DNA of 64,000 nt from Dehalococcoidia bacterium (GTDB lineage: Bacteria; Chloroflexota; Dehalococcoidia; Lucifugimonadales; UBA2985). Where the stretch lies: positions 1,153,454 to 1,217,453 of the forward strand of contig OZ253588.1 in assembly GCA_965263185.1 (NCBI GenBank). The letters are read 5' to 3'. The position numbers and the translations under genes were made by a program. The notes under the pieces were generated by a model. The model was not told the origin of the DNA. It did no database searches and saw only the letters and a list, made by a program, of their open reading frames with translations. Positions 2,745-62,847 of this stretch are shown piece by piece (positions within the stretch are counted from its first letter, which is position 1; the number at the start of each line of letters is the position of its first letter).

Positions 2745-3389
2745 ATGACAATCCATGAGTCCGGCGCAAAGCTGGTTCCCGTCACCGTGTGGTACGACTA
2801 CATTTGACCCTGGTGCTACATTGGCCTGGCCAGGTTGGACCAGCTAGAGCGGGAATTTCCACTGGACATCACCTATAAGACCTTCTATCTCAGGCCGGAC
2901 ACGCCTCCGGATGGCATTGTACGCGCGCCGAGGGAGGGCGAACAGCCGGGAGCGCCCCTCACGGGCCACATCGGCGAGGTGGCGGAGGAGGCCGGGCTTG
3001 TCATGAAGCGCGCGCCCCTCACTCCCAACAGCCGTCTGTCCTTTGAGGCATCCGAGTTCGCCAAGGACAAGGGCGTTTTTGAGCCTTTCCACAGGGCGTG
3101 CTACCGCGCCTTATGGGAAGACGGCGCCAACTTGGGCCTGCTTTCGGAGCTTCAGCATCTGGGGGAGCAGGTGGGCCTGGACCCTGCGGAGATGAAGGAA
3201 CGCCTGGACGCGGGCTACTACACCGCCCAGGCTCAGGCCCAGTACGAGGAGGCTATCTCCGTAGGCGTGCAGGGCATACCCTCCTTCATCATAGGGAGGT
3301 ACTTCTTCTCAGGCGCTCAGCCCTACGAGCTTTTCAAGAAGGTGGCCGATATGGCGCAGAAGGAGGGCAACTCCGAAGGGGAAGGCTGA
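2745..3389 (+). CDS. DsbA/FrnE-like thiol:disulfide oxidoreductase, putative selenoprotein (Sec at TGA 2805-2807)
   Basis: The ORF track starts at TTG 2835, which removes the redox motif. Reading the same frame upstream from ATG 2745 (GGGGGT SD-like) gives MTIHESGAKLVPVTVWYDYI-TGA-PWCYIGLARLDQ, i.e. UPWC where FrnE/DsbA proteins have CPWC. The C-terminal GVQGIPSFIIG is typical of DsbA. Confidence 0.7.
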
Positions 3390-7849: not shown

Positions 7850-9157
7850 ATGGAAATGGACGTTAACAGGGGTCTGCCCTATATGCTGAGCGTAGAAGAG
7901 GCTCAGGCCAGGATTCTGGGCATGTTCCGTACCCTGGAGTCGGAAAGGAAACCCCTGCTGGATGCCTTGGGCCAGGTACTGGCCGAGGACGTGGTATCCA
8001 CGTTGGATATTCCTCCCCTGACCAACTCCGCTATGGACGGGTATGCCGTGTGTTACGAAGCCATTGCAGGGGCAACCTACGACAGCCCCAGGGAGCTGCG
8101 GGTCATTGGACACTTGGCTGCGGGCCAGCTTCCTGAGCAGGAGGTGTCCGGCGTGAACGCGGTGCGCATAATGACCGGCGCTCCAATACCCTCCGGCGCG
8201 GACACGGTCGTGCCCTTTGAGGAGACGGACGAGTTCGAGAGGAAGGGCATGGGCATGGGCCCCCTGGACATAACGGAGATAATGGTCAGAACGGACGTTC
8301 CAAGAGCAGCAAACCTGCGGCCCGCCGGTCAGGACGTGCAAAAGGGTCAGATGGTACTGGAGAAAGGCGCTCTCCTGCGCCCTTCAGAGATAGGAGTGCT
8401 GGCATCCCTTGGCCGTGACGCGGTGGAGGTGACGCGCCGCCCGGTGGTGGCGGTCATAGCCACCGGGGATGAGCTTTTGGAGCCTGGAGAGCCCGCCGCC
8501 GCCGGCAAGATCTACAATAGCAACAGCTACAGTGTAGCGGCGGCCGTCCTTCGCTACGGCGGGATTCCCAGGATGCTGGGCATAGCCGGGGACAACCTGG
8601 AGTCGATGAACGCCAAGCTGGAGGAAGGGCTGACGGCGGATATGCTGTTGACCTCCGCCGGGGTGTCCAGGGGGGACTACGATATTGTAAAGGACGTGCT
8701 GGCCAGCCGCGGGGAGATCGACTTCTGGTCGGTCAGAATGAGGCCGGCAAAGCCCCTGGCATTTGGGGTTTTTCCTGGTCCGGGAGGCAGGAAAGTCCCC
8801 CACATTGGTCTGCCGGGGAACCCGGTGAGCGCGCTGGTCGCCTTTGAGGAGATGGTGCGTCCCGCCATCCTGAAGATGCAGGGGCGCACAGACCTTGGAA
8901 AGCCTGTTGTGAGAGCGGCGCTGGAGGACGACATCGTCAATGGCGATGAGCGGAGGGTGTACGCCAGGGCGGTTATTACCCGTAAAGACGGGCGCTACTA
9001 CGCCCGCTTGACGGGAGACCAGGGGTCCGGGGTGCTCACCTCAATGGCGCTGGCTAACGGTCTGGCCATATGCCCGGAGGACGTTCCGGTGATGAAGGCG
9101 GGTGAGGAGGTGGATGTCCAGATGCTGGACTGGCCGGAGGACGCGGGGCAGCGCTGA
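7850..9157 (+). CDS. moeA: Molybdopterin molybdenumtransferase MoeA
   Basis: SVEEAQARIL, PLTNSAMDGYAV, GDELLEPG, TSAGVSRGDYD and GLPGNPVSALV motifs. AGGAGGGTGA lies upstream of the ATG. Confidence 0.9.
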   Translation: MEMDVNRGLPYMLSVEEAQARILGMFRTLESERKPLLDALGQVLAEDVVSTLDIPPLTNSAMDGYAVCYEAIAGATYDSPRELRVIGHLAAGQLPEQEVSGVNAVRIMTGAPIPSGADTVVPFEETDEFERKGMGMGPLDITEIMVRTDVPRAANLRPAGQDVQKGQMVLEKGALLRPSEIGVLASLGRDAVEVTRRPVVAVIATGDELLEPGEPAAAGKIYNSNSYSVAAAVLRYGGIPRMLGIAGDNLESMNAKLEEGLTADMLLTSAGVSRGDYDIVKDVLASRGEIDFWSVRMRPAKPLAFGVFPGPGGRKVPHIGLPGNPVSALVAFEEMVRPAILKMQGRTDLGKPVVRAALEDDIVNGDERRVYARAVITRKDGRYYARLTGDQGSGVLTSMALANGLAICPEDVPVMKAGEEVDVQMLDWPEDAGQR

Positions 9158-9272: not shown

Positions 9273-10145
9273 CTAAGGGATGTCCTCGGACGTTTCGGCG
9301 GACGTTGTGGTTATGATCCCCTTAAGAACGTCGGCGCCCGTGGGGTCGTGGCTTCCCTCGACCGGCTCTATGGACACCGCGATATTATCGAAATCCCTGA
9401 TGGAGCCTATACCCTGCACCATTAGCTGGCCGTAGCCCGCGCTGTTCACGGTGAAGGTCCCTCCGCTTTCCATGGCGCCGTTTGTCATGAGCCACAGCTG
9501 GTACGCCTGGTCTCTTGGCAGCGGGTCCAGATTCAGCGCTTCCAGGACGGCCCAGGTGGCGCGAGGGCTGATCATGAGCATACCCCTGGACTTGGGAGAA
9601 GCCTCAGCTCCGTCCAGCATGACGGTGGAAACCCCAGGCATGGCCGCGACGTAGGCCAGGTCCAGCTGGTCGAAGAGCAGCTGGGATATCTTCTGGTTCT
9701 CCTCTTGCATCTGGCTCAACTCTTCCCGGAGGCTCGCCGAAAGGCGAGCGTCCTCGTCCTTCAGCTCATTCACCTCCATCCACAGCAGCAAAGCGCCCAG
9801 GCTCAAGCCCACCAGGGATATGGCTACGACAGCCATCGCCGAGGCGGCCAGGGGTTGTCTCAGGCTGCTTCTGAGGAGCCCCAGGATTCCGCCCGCCATA
9901 TCCGGCCTCGTCTTCGGCCTGGCGCCGGAGTCCACAATCGCCATGATGCGCTGCTTGAGTCCCAGGGGCGCCGGCAGCGAATCGCCCAATCTCGATAGGG
10001 TTACGGTAGCCGGGCTTTCCTCGTAGAACAGGGCAAGGCAGCCCGGACACCCCTGCATGTGGGTCTCCAGCGCGGCCCGCTCATGCTCATCAAGCGCGCC
10101 CAGCAGGTAGGCTGGTATTAGCTCCTCCGCCTCATAACACTTCAT
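9273..10145 (-). CDS. Anti-sigma factor (zf-HC2 N-terminus, TM segment, RskA-like C-terminus)
   Basis: H-x3-C-x2-C motif (THMQGCPGC), a central TM segment and YQLWLMTNG in the C-terminal domain. It overlaps the upstream sigma gene by 4 nt. Confidence 0.75.
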   Translation of the reverse strand: MKCYEAEELIPAYLLGALDEHERAALETHMQGCPGCLALFYEESPATVTLSRLGDSLPAPLGLKQRIMAIVDSGARPKTRPDMAGGILGLLRSSLRQPLAASAMAVVAISLVGLSLGALLLWMEVNELKDEDARLSASLREELSQMQEENQKISQLLFDQLDLAYVAAMPGVSTVMLDGAEASPKSRGMLMISPRATWAVLEALNLDPLPRDQAYQLWLMTNGAMESGGTFTVNSAGYGQLMVQGIGSIRDFDNIAVSIEPVEGSHDPTGADVLKGIITTTSAETSEDIP

Positions 10146-10708
10146 AATAGCTCCTCCGCCGGAACTCCAATGCTCTCTCTCAGCCTCTTCAGGGCGGACC
10201 TCATGTGGGTCTTCACCGTGCCAAGGGGTTGGCCCAGCATCTCGGATATCTCCTTCTGTGTGTAGCCCTGGAAATAGCTCAGGTATATCACCTTTTGGTA
10301 CTGGTCAGGCAGATCGCGGAGAGCGCCCTGTACCCGGTAAAACTCCGCGCCCGTTTCCAGTGAAGGGGCATCCTGAGACTCAAGCTGCTCCAACATCTCA
10401 TTCTCCATGGGTGTTTCCTGCGACCTCCTGCGTCGCTTCCTGAGCTCGTCCACGGCGCGGTTGTGGGTAATGTGAGTTATCCAGGTCGAAAACCGCGCTT
10501 TCAGGGGATCGAAATTCCCACTGTTGCGCCACACAGACAGAATTACGTCCTGGGTCACCTCTTCCGCGTCCGCGCGGTCTCCCAGAATGGTCATAGCCAG
10601 AGAGAACACCCTGGAAGAATGCCGGTCATACAAAGCCGCCAGGGCCTCTTGGTCGCCGGAAGAGACCAGGTAGGTTAGCTCCGTGTCCTCCAGGAGGTTG
10701 TATTCCAC
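10142..10708 (-). CDS. ECF-type RNA polymerase sigma-70 factor
   Basis: Region 2 (EEVTQDVILSVWR, FSTWITHITHNRAVDELRK) and region 4 (YFQGYTQKEISEMLGQPLGTVKTHMRSAL). Confidence 0.9.
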   Translation of the reverse strand: MEYNLLEDTELTYLVSSGDQEALAALYDRHSSRVFSLAMTILGDRADAEEVTQDVILSVWRNSGNFDPLKARFSTWITHITHNRAVDELRKRRRRSQETPMENEMLEQLESQDAPSLETGAEFYRVQGALRDLPDQYQKVIYLSYFQGYTQKEISEMLGQPLGTVKTHMRSALKRLRESIGVPAEELL

Positions 10709-10912
10709 GGCGTTCCCTCATCCGGACGCGCACCGCCGCGTGACTTAATATACGTAGCAACGGCGCGTTCGGATGTTATCTTGACTGGGTAGATTATAAA
10801 TGAAACGGCCGAAAATCCCTAATCGTTCCTACGGCTGAATTGCGCTGCCATGCAGAGGCTGTTAGAATTCTCGCAGCGCCATCGGTGTGTAGACCCATTT
10901 TGGGAGGGCGGC

Positions 10913-17558: not shown

Positions 17559-17901
17559 ATGCACATAACGAGCATAGCTAGTCAAGACATACCACAGATA
17601 GACGGTATTGATTTCCAATTTCATAAGCGGGTGAACCTGTTCATCGGCCCAAACGCGTCCGGCAAGAGTACCATCCTGCGGGCTATAATGCATTTGCGCT
17701 CCTTGGCGCTAGCGTCGGGGGGATCTACTATTCGCTCATTAGAAGCCAGAGGTATCTTTAACTGGGGCGATAGCACTACATATGTGGATGGAATCAACTA
17801 CCCCAGCCCTGGGGGTGGTCTGTCATTTGGTATGGAAGCAAGCGATGATTGGCCGCGAGATGACAAAGGGGGCATCAGATGGACCGAAGTGCCTTTCTTA
17901 T
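17559..17901 (+). pseudogene. ptuA: Septu-like PtuA ATPase, N-terminal fragment (gene split by IS1380-family insertion)
   Basis: Walker A motif LFIGPNASGKST. The reading frame runs straight into the IS left end at 17902. Confidence 0.7.
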
Positions 17902-19606
17902 CCCGAATCCACCGAAGGACACGGATGGGCGGCGTGAGGACCGGAGAAGGGGGATGAGAGAGCTACAGGGGAGATGGCCTGGGCTCGATTGGGGTAGATG
18001 GGAGGTCGGCGGAGGGACTTCAGTCACCGCACAGGCCCCCAATGGCCGTCTGCGGGAGCTGGGATGCGGGGGATGGCAAGAGAATAGGCAGCAGGGAACT
18101 CCCGCGGAGCTGGTTGGTGCGAGTTGGCGGGGACGTTGGGTCAGTGGCGGAGGGCGCCGTCAGGCTGGGAGTGGAATGGCTCGCAGCCGGGCCAGGGCGC
18201 GACTGAACTGGGTATCCCAGGGCCAGCGCCGGGGAAGATGCAGGGTCAATCGGCGTGCCGAGCGAGTGAGCCGTCCGGCCAAGGCGAAGACCCGTCGTCT
18301 GAGGGTCTTGGTGGTCACGATCTGCTCACCCAGGCCGATGCGGGCTGTCCAGCGGGCCAGGTTGTGTGCCATCACCTGTACCGCCAGCCAGGCTCCGTTG
18401 GCGGCGAAGCGGCCGGACGGCATGTGGTTCAGTCCGACACCGTACTTGAGGTCGCGTATCGCATTCTCGATCTCGGCGTGACGGCGATGATCAGCCTCCA
18501 GTTCGAGCATCTCCCCATCGCGGTCGGTGATGAAGCCGTGATAGCTGTAGGTGGCGAAGAGGGCCAACTGGGAACCGGGCGTGGGTTTCACCCGCCGGAC
18601 GATGAGCCGCACCGGCGCGGCGTCGGGCTCACTCTGGAAGGGGATATAGGTGGTCTCTGCCACATCGGCGGCGCCGTCCATCCAGTAGGGAATGGGAGTC
18701 CAGTCCTCTTCTGGTATGGCCTCGATGACATTGTGCAGGCTTTTGTGCTGGCGGATGGTGATGGAGAAGCGGACATCCATCTTGCGGCAGACGGATACCA
18801 CGCTATGAGCGTAGAAGCCGCTGTCGGCCCGCATCGTGAGTTGTCCCCTGGCCCCGGCGAAGCGCACCCGCCCCACCGTCTCACGCAGGAAGTGGGCGGC
18901 GCCGCGGGCGGTGTTGGCCCGGCCCTCGCGCAGCCGGGCCATCAGCACGTCTCCGGTTCCGGCGGCGACGGCCAGCAGCGGGTGATAGCCCCGCTGACCG
19001 GTGTAACCATGGTGGCGCGCCCCTTCCTTGGCCAGTCCATAGGTCTCGCAGATGGTGGAGTCCAGGTCGATGGTCAGGGGCCCGTCGCCGGGTCCGGCCC
19101 CGGCAGCCCAGGCCCGGGCCAGCAACTCCCGGCTAACCCGGTCCAGTTGGCGGACATGGCCCCACCTGAAGCTGCGCAGGAAGGCGCCCAGGGTGGAGGG
19201 AGCCTTAGCCGTGAAACCGAGAACGCGGGCGGTCCCGCCGGCGCGTAGCACATCGGCGTCGTCGATGCAGTCGCCACCGGCCAACGCGGAGGCCACCAGC
19301 GTCATCATCTTGTCACCGGTGTTGGCTCTGCCTTTTGCATGGCCCAGGTCCAGGTGCCGGTCAACCAGTTGGGGCAGGCCAAGGCGCAGGGCCAGGGTGG
19401 ACGGAAGAATCAGCCCGGCATTGGCCACCAGGCGGTGATCATCGAAGGCGATGCGGATGCGGTCGGGTTGGTGGCGTGGTAGCATCTATTGGGTGCTCCT
19501 TTTCCGGGACTGGTTTGCTGTTACAAAACCATTATCCCAGATTCAGAGGAGCACCCTTTGGCCACTTCAGGACGCTGACCCGACGCCCTCCTTCGGTGGA
19601 TTCGGG
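17902..19606 (-). mobile_element. IS1380-family insertion sequence, copy 1 (1705 bp)
   Basis: Perfect 17-bp terminal inverted repeats CCCGAATCCACCGAAGG. 5-bp direct target duplication CTTAT (17897-17901 and 19607-19611). Near-identical second copy at 54921-56625. Confidence 0.9.
18160..19485 (-). CDS. IS1380-family DDE transposase
   Basis: 441 aa. The C-terminal HRRHAEIENAIRDLKYGVGLNHMPSGRFAANGAWL block is typical of IS1380 transposases. Confidence 0.85.
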   Translation of the reverse strand: MLPRHQPDRIRIAFDDHRLVANAGLILPSTLALRLGLPQLVDRHLDLGHAKGRANTGDKMMTLVASALAGGDCIDDADVLRAGGTARVLGFTAKAPSTLGAFLRSFRWGHVRQLDRVSRELLARAWAAGAGPGDGPLTIDLDSTICETYGLAKEGARHHGYTGQRGYHPLLAVAAGTGDVLMARLREGRANTARGAAHFLRETVGRVRFAGARGQLTMRADSGFYAHSVVSVCRKMDVRFSITIRQHKSLHNVIEAIPEEDWTPIPYWMDGAADVAETTYIPFQSEPDAAPVRLIVRRVKPTPGSQLALFATYSYHGFITDRDGEMLELEADHRRHAEIENAIRDLKYGVGLNHMPSGRFAANGAWLAVQVMAHNLARWTARIGLGEQIVTTKTLRRRVFALAGRLTRSARRLTLHLPRRWPWDTQFSRALARLRAIPLPA

Positions 19607-20618
19607 CTTATATATACCCTCAACTCGGATCAGCCTCCCGGTCCAGCATGTTTTTGAGCCTCACATTTTTGACCAAGCAATAGAGGAGCCGGAAGATGTA
19701 GACGCAGATACAATACTGAAGCGCCTGTTTGACACTGAATCCGGTATCTTTGACGGCCGGTACGTGGAGTTGGCTATAGACCGGCTTCGCAAGGGAATGG
19801 TTGGGAATATAATCCAGCAGAACAACCTCAGTCGTGCTTTAGAGGACGCGTATACCTGTGCCTCGCGCATTTGTTCAGAGGTAATAAGCGATCGTTCCCC
19901 GCATCCCTACGTTGACCAGTATGAGACCGAGGGGACTAAGAGGACTGTTCATCATGCCATGGGGATAGGGACAAGCGACGTTTCTTGGAATACAGAGCAG
20001 CCTCTGTACGCAGGCGCTTTGAGCTCGGGGACCCAGGGAACTCTCCTGTGGGTCTACGCCCTAGCTCTCAAGATAGGAGAGCACTATGGGTTCGACGAGT
20101 ATTGGTGGGGCGGACAAGATAAGCCTGCAATCCTACTGATTGACGAGATAGAGAACCACCTGCATCCCACCTGGCAGCGGAGGGTTATACCGAAGCTGCT
20201 GGAGCATTTTCCCGGCTTGCAGATATTCGCTACAACCCACTCCCCCTTCGTGGTGGCCGGCCTGAAGGCCTGGCAGGTCCACCTGCTGAAGCGCGACGAA
20301 AACGGACGCGTCACCGCCACGACCTACCCCGAGGACGTTATCGGCTGGACGGCGGACGAGATCCTGCGGAACATGATGGGCGTTGAGGAGCCTACTGACC
20401 AACTCACAGTCGACCGCGCTAACCGGCTGCGGCAGCTCAGGGAAAAGGAAACGCTGACTCCCGAGGAAGAGTCCGAGTTGAACGAGCTGCGACGCCAGGT
20501 AAACGAGGATTTGTTGTCCAAGGGCGGCCCACTGGAAGCTCAGAGGGAGCGTTACGCGGACTTGATGGAGCGATTCCTGCTTTCCCGACAATCTGATCTC
20601 ACTCAAGAAGGAGATTAG
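19607..20618 (+). pseudogene. ptuA: Septu-like PtuA ATPase, C-terminal fragment
   Basis: ABC-type signature LSSGTQG, Walker B ILLIDEIENHLHP and H-loop ATTHSP. Deleting the IS and one TSD copy joins it in frame to 17559-17901 (..TEVPFLYIPSTRISLP..). Confidence 0.7.
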
Positions 20619-31865: not shown

Positions 31866-31938
31866 CAGCGCGGGGTAGTATGCTATAATTGGGGGCACAA
31901 CAAACGCGGGCCGCGTACCTCGCGCCAGGAGTTGAAAC

Positions 31939-32796
31939 ATGACCCCAAGCGACTATCCTCGCCCGGACCTCTTGGTGGAGTCGGAATGGCTTGAGGCTCA
32001 CCTGAACGACCCAGACCTGCGAATCATCGACTGCGACCAGTACGACCTGTACACCCGCGCCCACATCGCGAACGCCGTGGGCATCCCGGAGCACAACTTC
32101 ATCAAGAATCCGAACTTCCCCAGCGATCCCACTGGCTATCCCTTGGTGGCGTCGGCGGAGGACTTTGCGCGTTTGATGGGCAGAATGGGTATTGGGAACG
32201 ACACGACTGTTGTGGCCTACGACGCCGGTGGAGGAACACGCGCCGCCCGGCTGTGGTGGGTTCTCAACTACTACGGGCACACCAAGGCCATGATGCTCAA
32301 CGGCGGCTGGAAGAAGTGGCACGACGAGGGTCGGCCCACGTCGACGGACGCGCTGAGGCCACCGGAGGCCTCTTTCACCTCTACGGAAGTCCCCGACTTG
32401 GTCTGCCTGATGGACTACGGAGTCTCGTGCGTCGGGGACCCGGACACGGTGTTCCTGGACGTGCGATCCGAAGACGAGTGGACGGGCGCCGGCGCACGCG
32501 GCAACAAGCGGGCAGGCCACGTGCCAGGAGCCGTACACCTGGAGTGGCTCAACTTCGTCACCAGCGACAAGCACCAGACCGTCAAGCCCGCCGCAGAACT
32601 GCGAGCGATGCTGGAGGAGCGCGGCGTCACCCCGGACAAGCAGGTGATCACCTATTGACAGGGAGGAATCCGTGCGGCGCACGGCGCGTTCGTTCTCACC
32701 CTAATGGGATACAACCGGGTACGTAACTATGACGGCTCCATGGGAGAGTGGGCCAACCGAGACCACACTCCTCTGATGGTGGAAGGCGCTGGCTGA
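31939..32796 (+). CDS. Two-domain rhodanese-like sulfurtransferase, putative selenoprotein (Sec at TGA 32656-32658)
   Basis: The ORF track stops at 32658 (..KQVITY*). Reading through gives [44 protein letters not shown], so the TGA sits at the catalytic Cys of the CxxGxR loop. The true stop is TGA 32794-32796. Confidence 0.75.
32670..32684 (+). promoter_or_regulatory. Candidate bacterial SECIS hairpin
   Basis: CCGTGC-GGC-GCACGG begins 12 nt after the in-frame TGA and has Gs in the apical loop. Confidence 0.45.
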
Positions 32797-33995: not shown

Positions 33996-36920
33996 ATGGT
34001 AGTGAGCAGGGTAGCAGGAGCAGTCTTGGCGGTTCTAATGCTCGTGGCTGCCCTGGCGTGCCAGGAGCAGGAACCTACCAGCACTCCGGACACCCAAGCC
34101 ACCATAGACGCCAGCGTGGCCGCTACCATGGCAGCAATGCCAACCGCTTTGCCTACGCCGACTCCTACACCTACGAGTACCCCGACTCCCACCCCAATCC
34201 ATGCACCTTCCAGCATCTCCACGCCCACACCCTTTCTCATGCCGACTAGAACCCCTTCCCCGACTCCTAATCCTGTACATACAGTGACTCCCGATACAAG
34301 TAAATTTACTGCCATCAACAGCGGCGCCTGGCAAACCTGCGCGCTTCGAGCTGACGGCTCTCCAGTTTGCTGGGGTGACAATTATTCCGGCCAGACATCG
34401 CCGCCCACGGACGAGAGGTTCACCGCGGTCAGCAGTGGTAGCTCACACATCTGCGCGCTCCGCGCCGACGGCTCCCCCGTCTGCTGGGGGGACGATGGTT
34501 CGGGCCAAGCGTCGCCCCCCATGGACGAGAGGTTCACTGCAATCAGCAGTGGGAATTATCACACTTGCGCACTCCGCGCCGACGGCTCTCCGGTCTGCTG
34601 GGGCAGTGATTTCTACGATCAGATACCGCGGCCGTCGGACGAGAAATTTGCCGCCATAAGCAGTGGCGATGACCACACTTGCGCGCTTCGCGCCGACGGC
34701 TCTCCCGTCTGCTGGGGCAATAATGATGAACGCCAAACGTCTCCACCTACGAACGAGACGTTTACATCCATCAGCAGCGGTGCTAATCACACCTGCGCAC
34801 TCCGCACCGACGGTACTCCCGTCTGCTGGGGCAGTGATTCCGATGGCCAAGCGTCGCCTCCTCCAGGCAAGAAGTTCGCCGTCATCAGCAGCGGACGTTA
34901 CCACTCCTGCGCGCTCCTAGCCGACGGATCTCCTGTCTGCTGGGGAAGCAACGCCTACCGTGGTGAATATGTAGGTCAGGCGTCACCGCCTGAAGACGTG
35001 GGACTTACTGCCATCAGCAGCGGTGGTTGGCACACTTGCGCGCTACGCGCCGATGGCTCTTCCGTCTGCTGGGGGTCGGATTTGGAAGGAAAAGCCTCAC
35101 CACCCGGGGGCGAGTTCATCGACAATACTCGCGGCCAAAGTTTCACCTGTGCAATCCGAGCCGACGGATCGCCCGTTTGCTGGACAGATGATAGCGATGG
35201 TCAAGCTCTGTTTCCAACTGGTGAAAATATCAGCGTCATCAGTAGTGGCGCAAATTACACTTGCGCACTCCGTTCCGACGGGTTGCCTGTCTGCTGGGGC
35301 AAAGAAGGTTCCCGGATAGCGTCGCCTCCCACGAATGAGAGGTTCATCGCCATCAGCAGCGGCTTGATCCACACCTGCGCTCTGCGGGCCGACGGCTCTC
35401 CGGTCTGTTGGGGTAGCAACTCGGGCTTATTGGGCAACTACATCGGCCAGGCGTCGCCTCCCTTGGGCGAGAAATTCACCTCCATAAGCAGTGGCTGGTT
35501 CCACACCTGCGCTCTGCGCGCCGATGGCTCTCCGGTCTGCTGGGGTGGCGATGAGGATGGCGAAGCGTCGCCTCCCTTGGGCGAGAAATTCACCTCCATA
35601 AGCAGTGGCGCTCTCCACACCTGCGCATTGCGCTCCGACGGCTCTCCGGTCTGTTGGGGGTCCAATCTAGATGTGTTAGAAAGTGAATTCCTCGGACAGG
35701 CTTCACCACCCGCAAATGAGGAGTTCACCACCATCAGCGCGGGAGACTTCCACACCTGCGCACTCCGTAGCGACGGCTCTCCCGTTTGCTGGGGCAGCAA
35801 CTTGGGCTATCTCACCGGCTACTCCGGCCAAGCATCTCCTCCAACGGACGAGTCGTTTGCTTCCATCAGTAGTGGCGAATATCATACCTGCGCACTCCGC
35901 GCGGATGGCTCCCCTGTATGCTGGGGCAAGTATAGAGATTTCGGAAACATGATCAGCCAGGCGTCGCTGCCAGCGGACGAGAAGTTCACTTCCATTAGCA
36001 GTGGGAGCGCTTATGCATGCGGATTGCGTTCCGACGGCTACCTTGTCTGCTGGGGCAGCAACCTGGACCATCTCTCCAACTTCGTCGGCAAAGCATTACC
36101 TCCCACAGGTGAGAGCTTTACTTCCATTAGCAGCGGAGAATTCCACACCTGCGCACTCCGAGCCGACGGCTCGCCCGTCTGCTGGGGTAGTGACTTTTAC
36201 GGCCAATCGTCACCTCCCGAGGGTGAGAAATTCACTGCGATAAGCAGCGACTTTTCACACACATGTGCGATCAGTGTCGACGGCTCACCCGTCTGCTGGG
36301 GAATCAATTCATTTGGCCAGGCGTCGCCCCCCACATGGGAAAGGTTCACCGCCATCAGTAGCGGCCTTTCTCACACCTGCGCCCTCCGGGCTGACGGCTT
36401 CCCCGTCTGCTGGGGTTTTTGGAGTGATGAGTTTGGTCGTATATCACCTGTGTCGCCGCCCACAGGCGAGGACTTCACCGTCATCAGCACCGGAACTCTG
36501 CACACCTGCGCGCTCCGCGCTGACGGATCTCCTGTTTGCTGGGGCGACAATGAGAACGGCCAGGCATCGCCGCCTCCCAGCGAGAAGTTTATTGCTATCA
36601 GCAGCGGAGAATCCCACACTTGCGCGCTGCGCGCTGACGGCTCACCCGTCTGCTGGGGTGATAATGAGAACGGCCAGGCATCGCCGCCTCCAAACGAAAA
36701 ATTCACTGCCATCAGCAGTGGGGATAGACACAGCTGCGCACTCCGCTCAAACGGTACTCCCGTCTGCTGGGGCAGTAATCTGTTTGGCCAAGCGTCGTAT
36801 CCCGCGGGCCAGAAGCTGATTGTCATCAGCTGTGGAGATAGTCACACGTGCGCGCTACGCCCAAACGGTACCCCAGTCTGCTGGGGCTGGGATAATGATG
36901 GCCAAGCGTCGCCGCCTTAG
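33996..36920 (+). CDS. Secreted lipoprotein with about 22 short RCC1-like repeats
   Basis: Signal peptide plus lipobox (LVAALAC), a PT-rich linker, then 22 repeats of about 37-43 aa of the form F(T/A)xISSGxxHTCALRxDGSPVCWGxxxxGQASPP. Confidence 0.8.
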   Translation: MVVSRVAGAVLAVLMLVAALACQEQEPTSTPDTQATIDASVAATMAAMPTALPTPTPTPTSTPTPTPIHAPSSISTPTPFLMPTRTPSPTPNPVHTVTPDTSKFTAINSGAWQTCALRADGSPVCWGDNYSGQTSPPTDERFTAVSSGSSHICALRADGSPVCWGDDGSGQASPPMDERFTAISSGNYHTCALRADGSPVCWGSDFYDQIPRPSDEKFAAISSGDDHTCALRADGSPVCWGNNDERQTSPPTNETFTSISSGANHTCALRTDGTPVCWGSDSDGQASPPPGKKFAVISSGRYHSCALLADGSPVCWGSNAYRGEYVGQASPPEDVGLTAISSGGWHTCALRADGSSVCWGSDLEGKASPPGGEFIDNTRGQSFTCAIRADGSPVCWTDDSDGQALFPTGENISVISSGANYTCALRSDGLPVCWGKEGSRIASPPTNERFIAISSGLIHTCALRADGSPVCWGSNSGLLGNYIGQASPPLGEKFTSISSGWFHTCALRADGSPVCWGGDEDGEASPPLGEKFTSISSGALHTCALRSDGSPVCWGSNLDVLESEFLGQASPPANEEFTTISAGDFHTCALRSDGSPVCWGSNLGYLTGYSGQASPPTDESFASISSGEYHTCALRADGSPVCWGKYRDFGNMISQASLPADEKFTSISSGSAYACGLRSDGYLVCWGSNLDHLSNFVGKALPPTGESFTSISSGEFHTCALRADGSPVCWGSDFYGQSSPPEGEKFTAISSDFSHTCAISVDGSPVCWGINSFGQASPPTWERFTAISSGLSHTCALRADGFPVCWGFWSDEFGRISPVSPPTGEDFTVISTGTLHTCALRADGSPVCWGDNENGQASPPPSEKFIAISSGESHTCALRADGSPVCWGDNENGQASPPPNEKFTAISSGDRHSCALRSNGTPVCWGSNLFGQASYPAGQKLIVISCGDSHTCALRPNGTPVCWGWDNDGQASPP

Positions 36921-41670: not shown

Positions 41671-42031
<361 letters not shown>

Positions 42032-54524: not shown

Positions 54525-54920
54525 TACTGATGCCTTTTGCAAGTTGTCTGCGAGCGGATTGTTCTTCAAGGCGATTGATCTCCTTGGGGCAGATATCACC
54601 GAATGTGCTCGGTTACCGGCCCTTCCGTACATGCTAAAGAAGGGCCGATTGAGGACTATGTATGGCCCTGCAGTATGTGACGAATTGATGCCGATTGCTC
54701 ATAGTATGCCCATCGTGGATTGCACTAACAACGTCTGGCTGGACAAGTTGACGTTGGTGCAATCAATAGACCCTGGTGAGGCTCAACTCTTCGCAATGGG
54801 CGCTGCGACCGGGTTTCTAGTGATGACCGGAGACAAACGTGCACTTCGTGAGCTAAAGAGTATTCCCGATTTCCCCCAATTGCTTTCCGGACGTATAGTC
54901 GTATTGGAGACTGTTCTAAT
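54508..54920 (+). pseudogene. PIN-like domain protein, N-terminal fragment (split by IS1380-family insertion)
   Basis: MKLLVDTDAFCKL.., DPGEAQLFA and LVMTGDKRALREL give the D/E/D pattern of PIN-like nucleases. It overlaps the upstream gene by 17 nt, and the frame runs into the IS at 54921. Confidence 0.55.
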
Positions 54921-56625
54921 CCCGAATCCACCGAAGGACACGGATGGGCGGCGTGAGGACCGGAGAAGGGGGATGAGAGAGCTACAGGGGAGATGGCCTG
55001 GGCTCGATTGGGGTAGATGGGAGGTCGGCGGAGGGACTTCAGTCACCGCACAGGCCCCCAATGGCCGTCTGCGGGAGCTGGGATGCGGGGGATGGCAAGA
55101 GAATAGGCAGCAGGGAACTCCCGCGGAGCTGGTTGGTGCGAGTTGGCGGGGACGTTGGGTCAGTGGCGGAGGGCGCCGTCAGGCTGGGAGTGGAATGGCT
55201 CGCAGCCGGGCCAGGGCGCGACTGAACTGGGTATCCCAGGGCCAGCGCCGGGGAAGATGCAGGGTCAATCGGCGTGCCGAGCGAGTGAGCCGTCCGGCCA
55301 AGGCGAAGACCCGTCGTCTGAGGGTCTTGGTGGTCACGATCTGCTCACCCAGGCCGATGCGGGCTGTCCAGCGGGCCAGGTTGTGTGCCATCACCTGTAC
55401 CGCCAGCCAGGCTCCGTTGGCGGCGAAGCGGCCGGACGGCATGTGGTTCAGTCCGACACCGTACTTGAGGTCGCGTATCGCATTCTCGATCTCGGCGTGA
55501 CGGCGATGATCAGCCTCCAGTTCGAGCATCTCCCCATCGCGGTCGGTGATGAAGCCGTGATAGCTGTAGGTGGCGAAGAGGGCCAACTGGGAACCGGGCG
55601 TGGGCTTCACCCGCCGGACGATGAGCCGCACCGGCGCGGCGTCGGGCTCACTCTGGAAGGGGATATAGGTGGTCTCTGCCACATCGGCGGCGCCGTCCAT
55701 CCAGTAGGGAATGGGAGTCCAGTCCTCTTCTGGTATGGCCTCGATGACATTGTGCAGGCTTTTGTGCTGGCGGATGGTGATGGAGAAGCGGACATCCATC
55801 TTGCGGCAGACGGATACCACGCTATGAGCGTAGAAGCCGCTGTCGGCCCGCATCGTGAGTTGTCCCCTGGCCCCGCCGTAGCGAACCCGGCTCACCGTTT
55901 CACGCAGGAAGTGCGCGGCGCCGCGGGCGGTGTTGGCCCGGCCCTCCCGCAGCCGGGCCAGCAGCACGTCTCCGGTTCCGGCGGCGACGGCCAGCAGCGG
56001 GTGATAGCCCCGCACACCGGTGTAGCCGTGGTGGCGTGCGCCCTCCTTGGCCAGTCCGTAGGTCTCGCAGATGGTGGAGTCCAGGTCGATGGTCAGGGGC
56101 CCGTCGCCTGGTCCGGCCCCAGCCGCCCAGGCCCGGGCCAGCAACTCGCGGCTCACCCGGTCCAGTTGGCGGACATGGCCCCACCTGAAGCTGCGCAGGA
56201 AGGCGCCCAGGGTGGAGGGAGCCTTAGCCGTGAAACCGAGAACGCGGGCGATCCCCCCGGCGCGTAGCACATCGGCGTCGTCGATGCAGTCGCCACCGGC
56301 CAACGCGGAGGCCACCAGCGTCATCATCTTGTCACCGGTGTTGGCTCTGCCTTTTGCATGGCCCAGGTCCAGGCGCCGGTCAACCAGTTGGGGCAGGCCA
56401 AGGCGCAGGGCCAGGGTGGACGGAAGAATCAGCCCGGCATTGGCCACCAGGCGGTGATCATCGAAGGCGATGCGGATGCGGTCGGGTTGGTGGCGTGGTA
56501 GCATCTATTGGGTGCTCCTTTTCCGGGACTGGTTTGCTGTTACAAAACCATTATCCCAGATTCAGAGGAGCACCCTTTGGCCACTTCAGGACGCTGACCC
56601 GACGCCCTCCTTCGGTGGATTCGGG
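54921..56625 (-). mobile_element. IS1380-family insertion sequence, copy 2 (1705 bp)
   Basis: Same 17-bp terminal IRs as copy 1. 5-bp target duplication CTAAT (54916-54920 and 56626-56630). Confidence 0.9.
55179..56504 (-). CDS. IS1380-family DDE transposase
   Basis: 441 aa. Differs from the copy-1 protein at a handful of positions clustered in the N-terminal half. Confidence 0.85.
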   Translation of the reverse strand: MLPRHQPDRIRIAFDDHRLVANAGLILPSTLALRLGLPQLVDRRLDLGHAKGRANTGDKMMTLVASALAGGDCIDDADVLRAGGIARVLGFTAKAPSTLGAFLRSFRWGHVRQLDRVSRELLARAWAAGAGPGDGPLTIDLDSTICETYGLAKEGARHHGYTGVRGYHPLLAVAAGTGDVLLARLREGRANTARGAAHFLRETVSRVRYGGARGQLTMRADSGFYAHSVVSVCRKMDVRFSITIRQHKSLHNVIEAIPEEDWTPIPYWMDGAADVAETTYIPFQSEPDAAPVRLIVRRVKPTPGSQLALFATYSYHGFITDRDGEMLELEADHRRHAEIENAIRDLKYGVGLNHMPSGRFAANGAWLAVQVMAHNLARWTARIGLGEQIVTTKTLRRRVFALAGRLTRSARRLTLHLPRRWPWDTQFSRALARLRAIPLPA

Positions 56626-56829
56626 CTAATTGCTCTTTGTGATCGGTTCGGGCCTGACAAGATACGCCAATGCATTCAGGGACTGGCCGCATGGGACATA
56701 GTCGCCCGGAATAGTTTCTCCTCTGGCAACACCGATCCTCGGGATGGCCTGAACTCGTATTACAATGACCTCGAGGTCGAAGTCGACCCGTTAGTCCTGT
56801 GGAATCCTAGATCGCAAGGGAACTCATGA
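56626..56829 (+). pseudogene. PIN-like domain protein, C-terminal fragment
   Basis: Removing the IS and one TSD copy restores ..VVLETVLIALCDRFGPDKIRQ.. in frame. The stop overlaps the next start (ATGA). Confidence 0.55.
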
Positions 56830-62388: not shown

Positions 62389-62847
62389 ATGCCGGCAGAG
62401 GTAGGAGACAAGGCGCCAGATTTCACACTCCGCTCCCACACGGGTGAAGACGTCACCCTGAGCCAGTACCTTGGACAGAAGACGGTGGTGCTCCAGACCC
62501 ACGTTCTATCCTTCACAGGCGGTTGAACGCACCAGTGCTCCTCATTCCGGCTGGATAACCGCCGGTACGAGGAGCGCGACGCCCAGGTCCTGGGCATGAG
62601 CGTTGATAGCGCGCCAACTCAGAGGGCTTTCGCCACAGGGTTGGGAAACCTCCCATACCCGTTGCTGGCCGACTTCCACCCCAAGGGACAGGTGTCGGAA
62701 CTCTTCGGCATTTACAACGAGGAGCGGGGCGTAACAAGGCGGGCCGTGATCATCATAGACAAAGAGGGTGTGATAAGGTACAAGAGGATTTACACCGAGG
62801 GCCTGCCGGACTCCAAGGAGATTCTGGAGGAGTTGGACAGGCTGTAG
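62389..62847 (+). CDS. Peroxiredoxin (AhpC/TSA, BCP-like), putative selenoprotein (Sec at TGA 62524-62526)
   Basis: ATG 62389 follows CAGGAGGT. Translation is MPAEVGDKAPDFTLRSHTGEDVTLSQYLGQKTVVLQTHVLSFTGG-TGA-THQCSSF, and it continues in frame into ORF 62596-62847 (..RAVIIIDKEGVIRY). The TGA is at the peroxidatic Cys (TxxC) position. Confidence 0.75.
62535..62577 (+). promoter_or_regulatory. Candidate bacterial SECIS hairpin
   Basis: The 7-bp stem GCTCCTC/GAGGAGC encloses the 5-bp stem CCGGC/GCCGG with a 9-nt loop TGGATAACC. It starts about 10 nt after the TGA. Confidence 0.5.

Follow-up and report, generated by a model that had tools for sequence, protein, structure and literature searches.

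A rhodanese gene interrupted by an in-frame TGA

The question raised by this locus is whether a TGA codon inside a rhodanese-like gene of a Dehalococcoidia bacterium ends a shortened protein or is read as selenocysteine (Sec). The gene occupies positions 31939–32796 on the plus strand of a 64,000-nt stretch of contig OZ253588.1 (assembly GCA_965263185.1, positions 1,153,454 to 1,217,453), which is referred to here as the window. Judged from comparative sequence data, the product of the locus is very probably a two-domain rhodanese of 285 residues and of the thiosulfate sulfurtransferase (TST) type, in which the catalytic cysteine is replaced by Sec. The original prediction, made from the letters of the window without database searches, had called the gene a probable selenoprotein, and this view is upheld: of 80 related loci, 79 have the TGA, and the frame beyond it is conserved.

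The standard open reading frame (ORF) runs from the ATG at 31939 to the TGA at 32656–32658 and encodes 239 amino acids. Beyond this TGA the translated frame continues for 45 further sense codons to a second TGA at 32794–32796, which is identified as the terminal stop by the translation and by the stop positions of orthologues. The complete coding sequence thereby comprises 285 codons, of which number 240 is the predicted Sec codon, and closes with the terminal TGA. A Shine-Dalgarno-like box (AGGAG, 31927–31931, plus strand) can be read in the sequence 7 nt 5′ of the ATG, and the N-terminus is collinear with homologues from residue 1 in the alignment. An ORF ending at 32658 and a read-through across the rhodanese active-site loop had been described before, and both coordinates and sequences are confirmed. 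The earlier count of 46 conserved codons needs a small correction: the tail is indeed conserved, but the sense codons after the TGA number 45, and 46 is reached by including the TGA itself.

The read-through product matches the Pfam Rhodanese family with an E-value of 1.2e-38 in two stretches, with coordinates printed for the second only. That stretch is the C-terminal catalytic domain at 32434–32757 (aa 166–273; PF00581, profile positions 10–101 of 102), within which the in-frame TGA lies. The N-terminal, non-catalytic rhodanese domain extends approximately from 31966 to 32343 (about aa 10–135), its limits being taken from the end-to-end alignment to structures 1UAR and 3HWI. This tandem arrangement, in which the catalytic residue belongs to the C-terminal domain, is that of the two-domain COG2897/cd01449 type. 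The TGA stands at the catalytic position of a U-Q-G-G-I-R loop, which is an active-site loop of the C-x-x-G-x-R type with Sec in place of cysteine and is followed by a helix, as in rhodaneses.

Among the NCBIfam models, the closest to the product is 3-mercaptopyruvate sulfurtransferase. The SseA equivalog model (NF008557) gives a score of 122.9 bits, which lies below its cut-off of 250. The loop expected of SseA has the pattern CG[ST]GVT, and QGGIR stands in its place here. On these sequence scores the predicted protein is related to SseA and falls short of SseA equivalog status.

The TGA codon coincides with the catalytic cysteine of homologues

A search of a protein collection with the rhodanese returned 5,328 relatives, and lengths were tallied for the best 120. 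About 95 of these 120 are 236–243 aa long and end at the same position as the standard ORF, down to 58% identity. Another 19 of them have approximately 270–287 residues and are 52–58% identical to the query. In the alignment, a cysteine of the long (~280-aa) homologues occupies the column of TGA codon 240. The 45-aa tail was compared with that of one such cysteine homologue (P0048); in this single comparison the two are 84% identical (E = 1e-25).

The best matches among solved structures are the Thermus thermophilus rhodanese 1UAR (E = 3.7e-46) and the mycobacterial TSTs 3HWI and 3AAX. The alignment to 1UAR and 3HWI covers residues 6–279, and a full-length alignment is also obtained to 1RHD. 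The catalytic cysteine of 1UAR and 3HWI (Y-C-R-I-A/G-E-R-S) falls on codon 240, so that U-Q-G-G-I-R-A-A-H pairs with C-R-I-A-E-R-S-S-H of 1UAR. The proposal that the TGA sits at the catalytic cysteine is thus borne out by homologues and by solved thiosulfate sulfurtransferases alike. The Sec/Cys pairing expected of a bacterial selenoprotein is found in the cysteine alignments, in the structures, and in 28 distinct Cys forms that carry TGC or TGT at this codon.

The TGA and the reading frame after it are conserved

In a genome scan limited to one genome per species, 80 related loci were recovered at 49–97% identity. Most of them belong to metagenome-assembled genomes (MAGs) of Dehalococcoidia/Chloroflexota, and the remainder to MAGs of Candidatus Binatia, Entotheonella/Tectomicrobia, Methylomirabilota, Desulfobacterota-type bacteria and Gemmatimonadota. 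The catalytic codon is TGA at 79 of these loci, whose architecture matches that of the window gene, and TGC at one (L078), and in all 80 the frame is open and conserved after the catalytic codon. More loci came from metagenomes scanned with Cys forms as seeds, which brought the total to 111 distinct TGA forms and the 28 distinct Cys forms. UGA-containing orthologues with coding conservation downstream of the UGA are accordingly found in other genomes.

The original prediction had made conservation of the tail (32659–32793) in related genomes a deciding point, and the tails prove to be kept, not lost. Across codons +10 to +38 of the TGA forms, the ratio of nonsynonymous to synonymous differences (pN/pS) is 0.27, and synonymous sites are saturated (pS 0.72). 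The final stop falls 40–47 codons past the Sec codon in all 111 TGA forms, and is TAG in 48, TGA in 33 and TAA in 30 of them. Since 33 of the 111 orthologues and the window gene itself end with TGA, this triplet is still a stop in these lineages. In addition, many ORFs of the 64-kb window with a high GC content at third codon positions (GC3) terminate with TGA. Taken together, these comparisons rule out that the locus is a pseudogene or yields a truncated product, that the TGA is an error of sequencing, and that TGA has been reassigned throughout the genome.

A SECIS-like hairpin within the active-site loop

Bacterial Sec codons are read in the context of a Sec insertion sequence (SECIS), and a hairpin at 32670–32684 had been proposed for this role. 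The element (CCGUGC-GGC-GCACGG, plus strand) is present and begins after an 11-nt spacer from the TGA. It consists of a 6-bp stem and a 3-nt loop starting with GG, has a folding energy of −8.0 kcal/mol, and overlaps six codons (Ile-Arg-Ala-Ala-His-Gly) that belong to the active-site loop and to the helix after it. An extended stem around this core (32661–32696, plus strand; GGGA.GAAU ... GUUC.UUCU) can be drawn, and the minimum-free-energy fold of 32656–32700 reaches −15.5 kcal/mol. The extended stem is not conserved in relatives and was not recovered by RNAalifold on 106 sequences.

The constraints of the bacterial SECIS (bSECIS) model were taken from a recent review (PMC13188914). The apical loop of 3 nt (GGC) and the upper stem of 6 bp lie within the published ranges of 3–9 nt and 4–16 bp; GG is observed where a G is expected at loop positions 1–2; the distance from the UGA to the loop is 17 nt (published 16–37 nt); and the energy of −8.0 kcal/mol is below the published limit of −7.5 kcal/mol. 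The hairpin thus agrees with all four published bSECIS criteria. It resembles the upper stem-loop of the E. coli fdhF type and the bSECISearch consensus in its small loop beginning with GG, its upper stem of 6–7 bp, and its position within the coding region. The minimal E. coli SECIS is a 17-nt stem-loop located 11 nt from the UGA, and the spacer here is of equal length. Unlike the bSECIS consensus, the element is very compact (15–17 nt, with a triloop) and is without a conserved lower stem. In the Rfam scan of the window at gathering thresholds no SECIS family was matched, the RNase P RNA being the sole hit.

Support for a role of the hairpin comes from its constraint across relatives. In TGA forms, a stretch of 17 nt (AUCCGUGCGGCGCACGG) is almost invariant, synonymous sites included. 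The Arg codon is CGT in 106 of 111 TGA forms against 2 of 28 Cys forms. The first Ala codon is GCG in 108/111 against 15/28, the second is GCG in 110/111 against 13/28, and His is CAC in 105/105 against 20/27. For the Ile codon ATC (101/110) and the Gly codon GGA (87/101), counts were made in the TGA forms. Over the six hairpin codons, TGA forms have a pS of 0.12, against 0.61 for Cys forms, and the flanks in TGA forms have values of 0.65–0.72. The two Gly codons directly 5′ of the hairpin and the codons 3′ of it vary freely in the TGA forms.

The pairing itself is also maintained. Stem cells are paired in 97.9% of cases, and in 500 shuffles the observed values were not reached once, whichever measure was used. 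The 6-bp stem is also what RNAalifold predicts, and in most relatives the GGA codon supplies a seventh pair (U-A). Compensatory changes occur from C-G to A-U in loci L035, L097, L108 and L125, where the change entails a Gly-to-Val replacement, and from G-C to U-A in L155, together with Ala-to-Ser and His-to-Asn replacements. The fit to the model, the synonymous-site conservation confined to TGA forms and these compensatory changes speak for the interpretation of the hairpin as a bacterial SECIS.

Divergent TGA-containing rhodanese clades (T-V-U-QGGIRAAQSALTL and others) are without the main hairpin, and have their own hairpins at least 6 nt further downstream. In L128, L136 and L140 the hairpin is CAGCGCA-GUC-UGCGCUG, and in L147 it is GGCGAACA-GUG-UGUUCGUC. 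All four obey the same loop and spacing rules, with G first in the loop. L078, the Cys form of that clade, is without any of these hairpins. L140 contains two tandem Sec-rhodanese paralogues, with TGAs at approximately 1688 and 2652. Two Cys (TGC) forms, L081 (~983) and L085 (~1703), retain the exact main hairpin sequence AUCCGUGCGGCGCACGGA, which may reflect a recent replacement of Sec by cysteine.

Bacterial SECIS elements are generally dissimilar between genes (PMC13188914). Against this background, the near-invariance of the present hairpin across phyla is unusual.

Predicted recoding and its alternatives

By analogy with the established bacterial pathway, SelB would be recruited by the hairpin (CCGUGC-GGC-GCACGG), which starts 11 nt 3′ of the UGA at 32656–32658, and would bring in the Sec-tRNA(Sec) that decodes this UGA. 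Following Sec insertion, the ribosome would translate the 45 codons up to the stop at 32794–32796, completing the catalytic domain. Since the hairpin is itself part of the stretch that codes for the active-site loop, the same nucleotides would act both as codons of that loop and as the recoding signal. In the mature enzyme, as in other rhodaneses, the selenolate would take up sulfane sulfur as an Se–S intermediate and hand it to an acceptor.

Several results weigh against this account. Neither ARAGORN nor Rfam found a tRNA-Sec in the 64-kb window, in which the one tRNA present is a tRNA-Tyr. SelA and SelD were not found by tblastn with E. coli queries in the window or in 164 loci, and sel genes are absent from about 10 kb past the right end of the window. 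The lack of sel genes in the window is expected by chance, as there would be just four of them in some 2 Mb of genome. The folding energy of the hairpin is no better than that of shuffled sequences (z = −0.24 and −0.93), and a comparable hairpin follows 56 of the 1793 UGA triplets in the window (3.1%). As the shuffle z-scores are not significant, thermodynamic stability was dropped as evidence and the comparative data were used. Taken by itself the hairpin would be weak evidence; its significance comes from the comparison with related sequences, and on that comparison it is decisive. Within that comparison, covariation is limited to five sequences at two pairs, a sparseness that arises because the stem is otherwise invariant, and the conserved amino acids IRAAHG impose part of the nucleotide conservation.

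The near-invariance of the signal could be given a more far-reaching meaning, namely that it marks a special arrangement and not a routine use of Sec. In one variant, gene and signal would move horizontally, travelling as a self-contained unit between Sec-competent lineages. In another, the Sec-rhodanese would have a chemistry of its own, for instance by carrying selenium or sulfane into the synthesis of selenophosphate, and would not be just a faster Cys enzyme. The 17-nt near-invariance spans Chloroflexota, Binatia, Tectomicrobia and Methylomirabilota, and neighbouring synonymous sites are saturated. Such an arrangement is considered improbable.

Recoding by the SECIS/SelB route might also deliver cysteine in place of Sec. 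A tRNA-Sec-like tRNA charged with cysteine would be needed for this, such as Mukai et al. reportedly described for some bacteria in 2016. The UGA, the hairpin and the conserved tail cannot tell which amino acid is delivered. The tRNA-Sec encoded near one of the TGA orthologues (L079, described below) is, however, canonical, with discriminator base G73 and not the U73 expected for cysteine identity. The family has been published as a selenoprotein family, and the prior for such a mechanism is low. Insertion of cysteine is accordingly judged very unlikely.

Slightly less credible still is the reading of the TGA as a genuine stop, whereby the locus would be a pseudogene or encode a 239-residue rhodanese-like protein without the catalytic loop, and the 3′ 135 nt would be non-coding. 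Public gene callers do annotate 239-aa products, and TGA is a normal stop in this genome. Yet 79 of 80 genomes, belonging to several phyla, have retained this TGA despite saturated synonymous sites nearby, and the tail is in frame, has a common end point, is under constraint (pN/pS 0.27) and is 84% identical to that of a Cys homologue. A protein truncated at this point would have neither the catalytic residue nor half of the catalytic domain. A genetic code in which TGA stands for a standard amino acid throughout the genome (such as codes 4 or 25), or a TGC wrongly sequenced as TGA, would explain the open frame across the TGA equally well and has nothing specific in its favour, and it can be set aside as negligible given that the window gene, 33 of 111 orthologues at their conserved C-terminus and many high-GC3 ORFs of the window stop with TGA, that recurrence of an error in 111 independent assemblies is impossible, and that the hairpin constraint is confined to TGA forms.

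Selenocysteine machinery and further Sec candidates

Replacement of the catalytic cysteine by Sec, as preferred here, presupposes that the host has a Sec-decoding apparatus. SelB was searched by tblastn with an E. coli query; none was found in the window, and three weak GTPase-type matches were obtained at unrelated loci. Among the related loci, L079 from a Candidatus Binatia MAG carries a tRNA-Sec gene at 8740–8835 (plus strand), 1.2 kb 5′ of the TGA orthologue at 10001–10819. The tRNA was called by ARAGORN, scores 73.8 bits with Rfam RF01852, and has the anticodon UCA as well as the discriminator G73 mentioned above. A Pfam scan found no sel protein genes near it.

A relaxed screen of the window for in-frame TGA codons recovered the rhodanese gene together with two further credible Sec candidates, and a stricter screen based on GC3 missed the rhodanese gene. 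The first candidate is a gene for a DsbA-like protein of the thioredoxin fold at 2745–3389 on the plus strand (PF01323, residues 13–199 of the read-through product). Its TGA at 2805–2807 falls in the motif Y-D-Y-I-U-P-W-C, which is of the UxxC type, and the standard ORF call (2835–3389) begins 3′ of this codon. DsbA-like UxxC selenoproteins are a published family. The second candidate is an AhpC/TSA peroxiredoxin gene at 62389–62847, also on the plus strand (PF00578, residues 5–131), in which the TGA at 62524–62526 sits at the peroxidatic position within F-T-G-G-U-T-H-Q-C. The hairpin after this TGA is very stable (−30.8 kcal/mol, z = −5.0). In gene calls the peroxiredoxin candidate is split into fragments of 45 and 83 aa, as seen in L166.

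In the BSepDB survey, Dehalococcoidia MAGs with 46 and 49 selenoprotein genes are among the ten richest bacteria (PMC13326102). The tRNA-Sec of L079, the two additional candidates in the window and the selenoproteomes of Dehalococcoidia together give indirect support for a Sec machinery in the host. Three genes with a TGA at a cysteine position within 64 kb mark the organism as one of the selenoprotein-rich Dehalococcoidia type, consistent with recent surveys.

Relationship to known sulfurtransferases

A Sec-containing rhodanese-related sulfurtransferase (COG2897) with a predicted SECIS was reported from the Sargasso Sea in 2005 (PMC1088965). A Sec rhodanese in GOS (Global Ocean Sampling) data followed in 2008, assigned to the catalytic TST repeat cd01449 (TST_Repeat_2; PMC2398784), and a 2026 review lists two UxxG forms of rhodanese-related sulfurtransferase, numbered 2 and 4 (PMC13188914). 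The present protein has the UxxG motif (U-Q-G-G) in a PF00581/COG2897-type sequence. It shares with the published family the two domains, Sec in place of the catalytic cysteine, the downstream SECIS with a G in the loop, and the widespread occurrence of Cys homologues. This correspondence is one of motif and description, and at this level no difference from the family, whose published exemplars are AACY01016424, MBM9537886.1 and MCY3690685.1, came to light.

With the Cys-type TSTs 1UAR, 3HWI/3AAX and Azotobacter RhdA (1E0C), the protein shares the tandem fold from end to end (E = 3.7e-46 to 8e-36), the position of the catalytic residue, and a C-x-x-x-x-R loop that leads into a helix. It differs from them in having Sec for cysteine and the loop Q-G-G-I-R, whereas the loop of 1UAR and 3HWI/3AAX reads C-R-I-[AG]-E-R-S.

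The locus adds a publicly mis-annotated member to a selenoprotein family known since 2005, with the standard mechanism. Public gene calls, among them NCBI and JGI entries named ‘sulfurtransferase’, end at residue 239 and so drop the catalytic residue along with half of the domain that carries it. A search of NCBIfam gave no match of a dedicated selenoprotein model to the rhodanese product, which is why gene-calling pipelines truncate it, and hundreds of database entries of the Sec-rhodanese family are in need of correction. The locus is also a clear example of one set of nucleotides used for a recoding signal and for an active-site loop, with compensatory stem changes tolerated even where they alter amino acids. 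The family and the mechanism being established, the locus raises no new question; mildly notable are the cross-phylum invariance of a very compact SECIS over an active-site loop and the fact that 64 kb hold as many as three Sec candidates.

Genomic context and other features of the window

The rhodanese gene is preceded by a putative H+-pyrophosphatase-like gene, assigned by eye, and followed by a gene for a GDSL-type hydrolase. Of the relatives, only the closest ones (L001, L004 and L005) have these neighbours too, and because synteny is limited to these three, the gene context offers no functional clue. At 33996–36920 on the plus strand lies a gene for a 974-residue protein with regular repeats of about 50 residues (HTCALRADGSPVCWG), which are RCC1- or beta-propeller-like in look and are preceded by a Thr/Pro-rich linker.

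RNA genes detected in the window by Rfam and ARAGORN comprise a bacterial class A RNase P RNA (41673–42024, minus strand, 316 bits) and a tRNA-Tyr (8491–8562, minus strand) only. An element of about 1.7 kb is present in two copies, at 17900–19608 and 54919–56627. Each copy contains a minus-strand ORF of 441 codons, with 26 positions at which the two ORFs differ. A DDE transposase is encoded by the element, as indicated by the Pfam family DDE_Tnp_1 on the matching gene of L166, which identifies the element as an insertion sequence.

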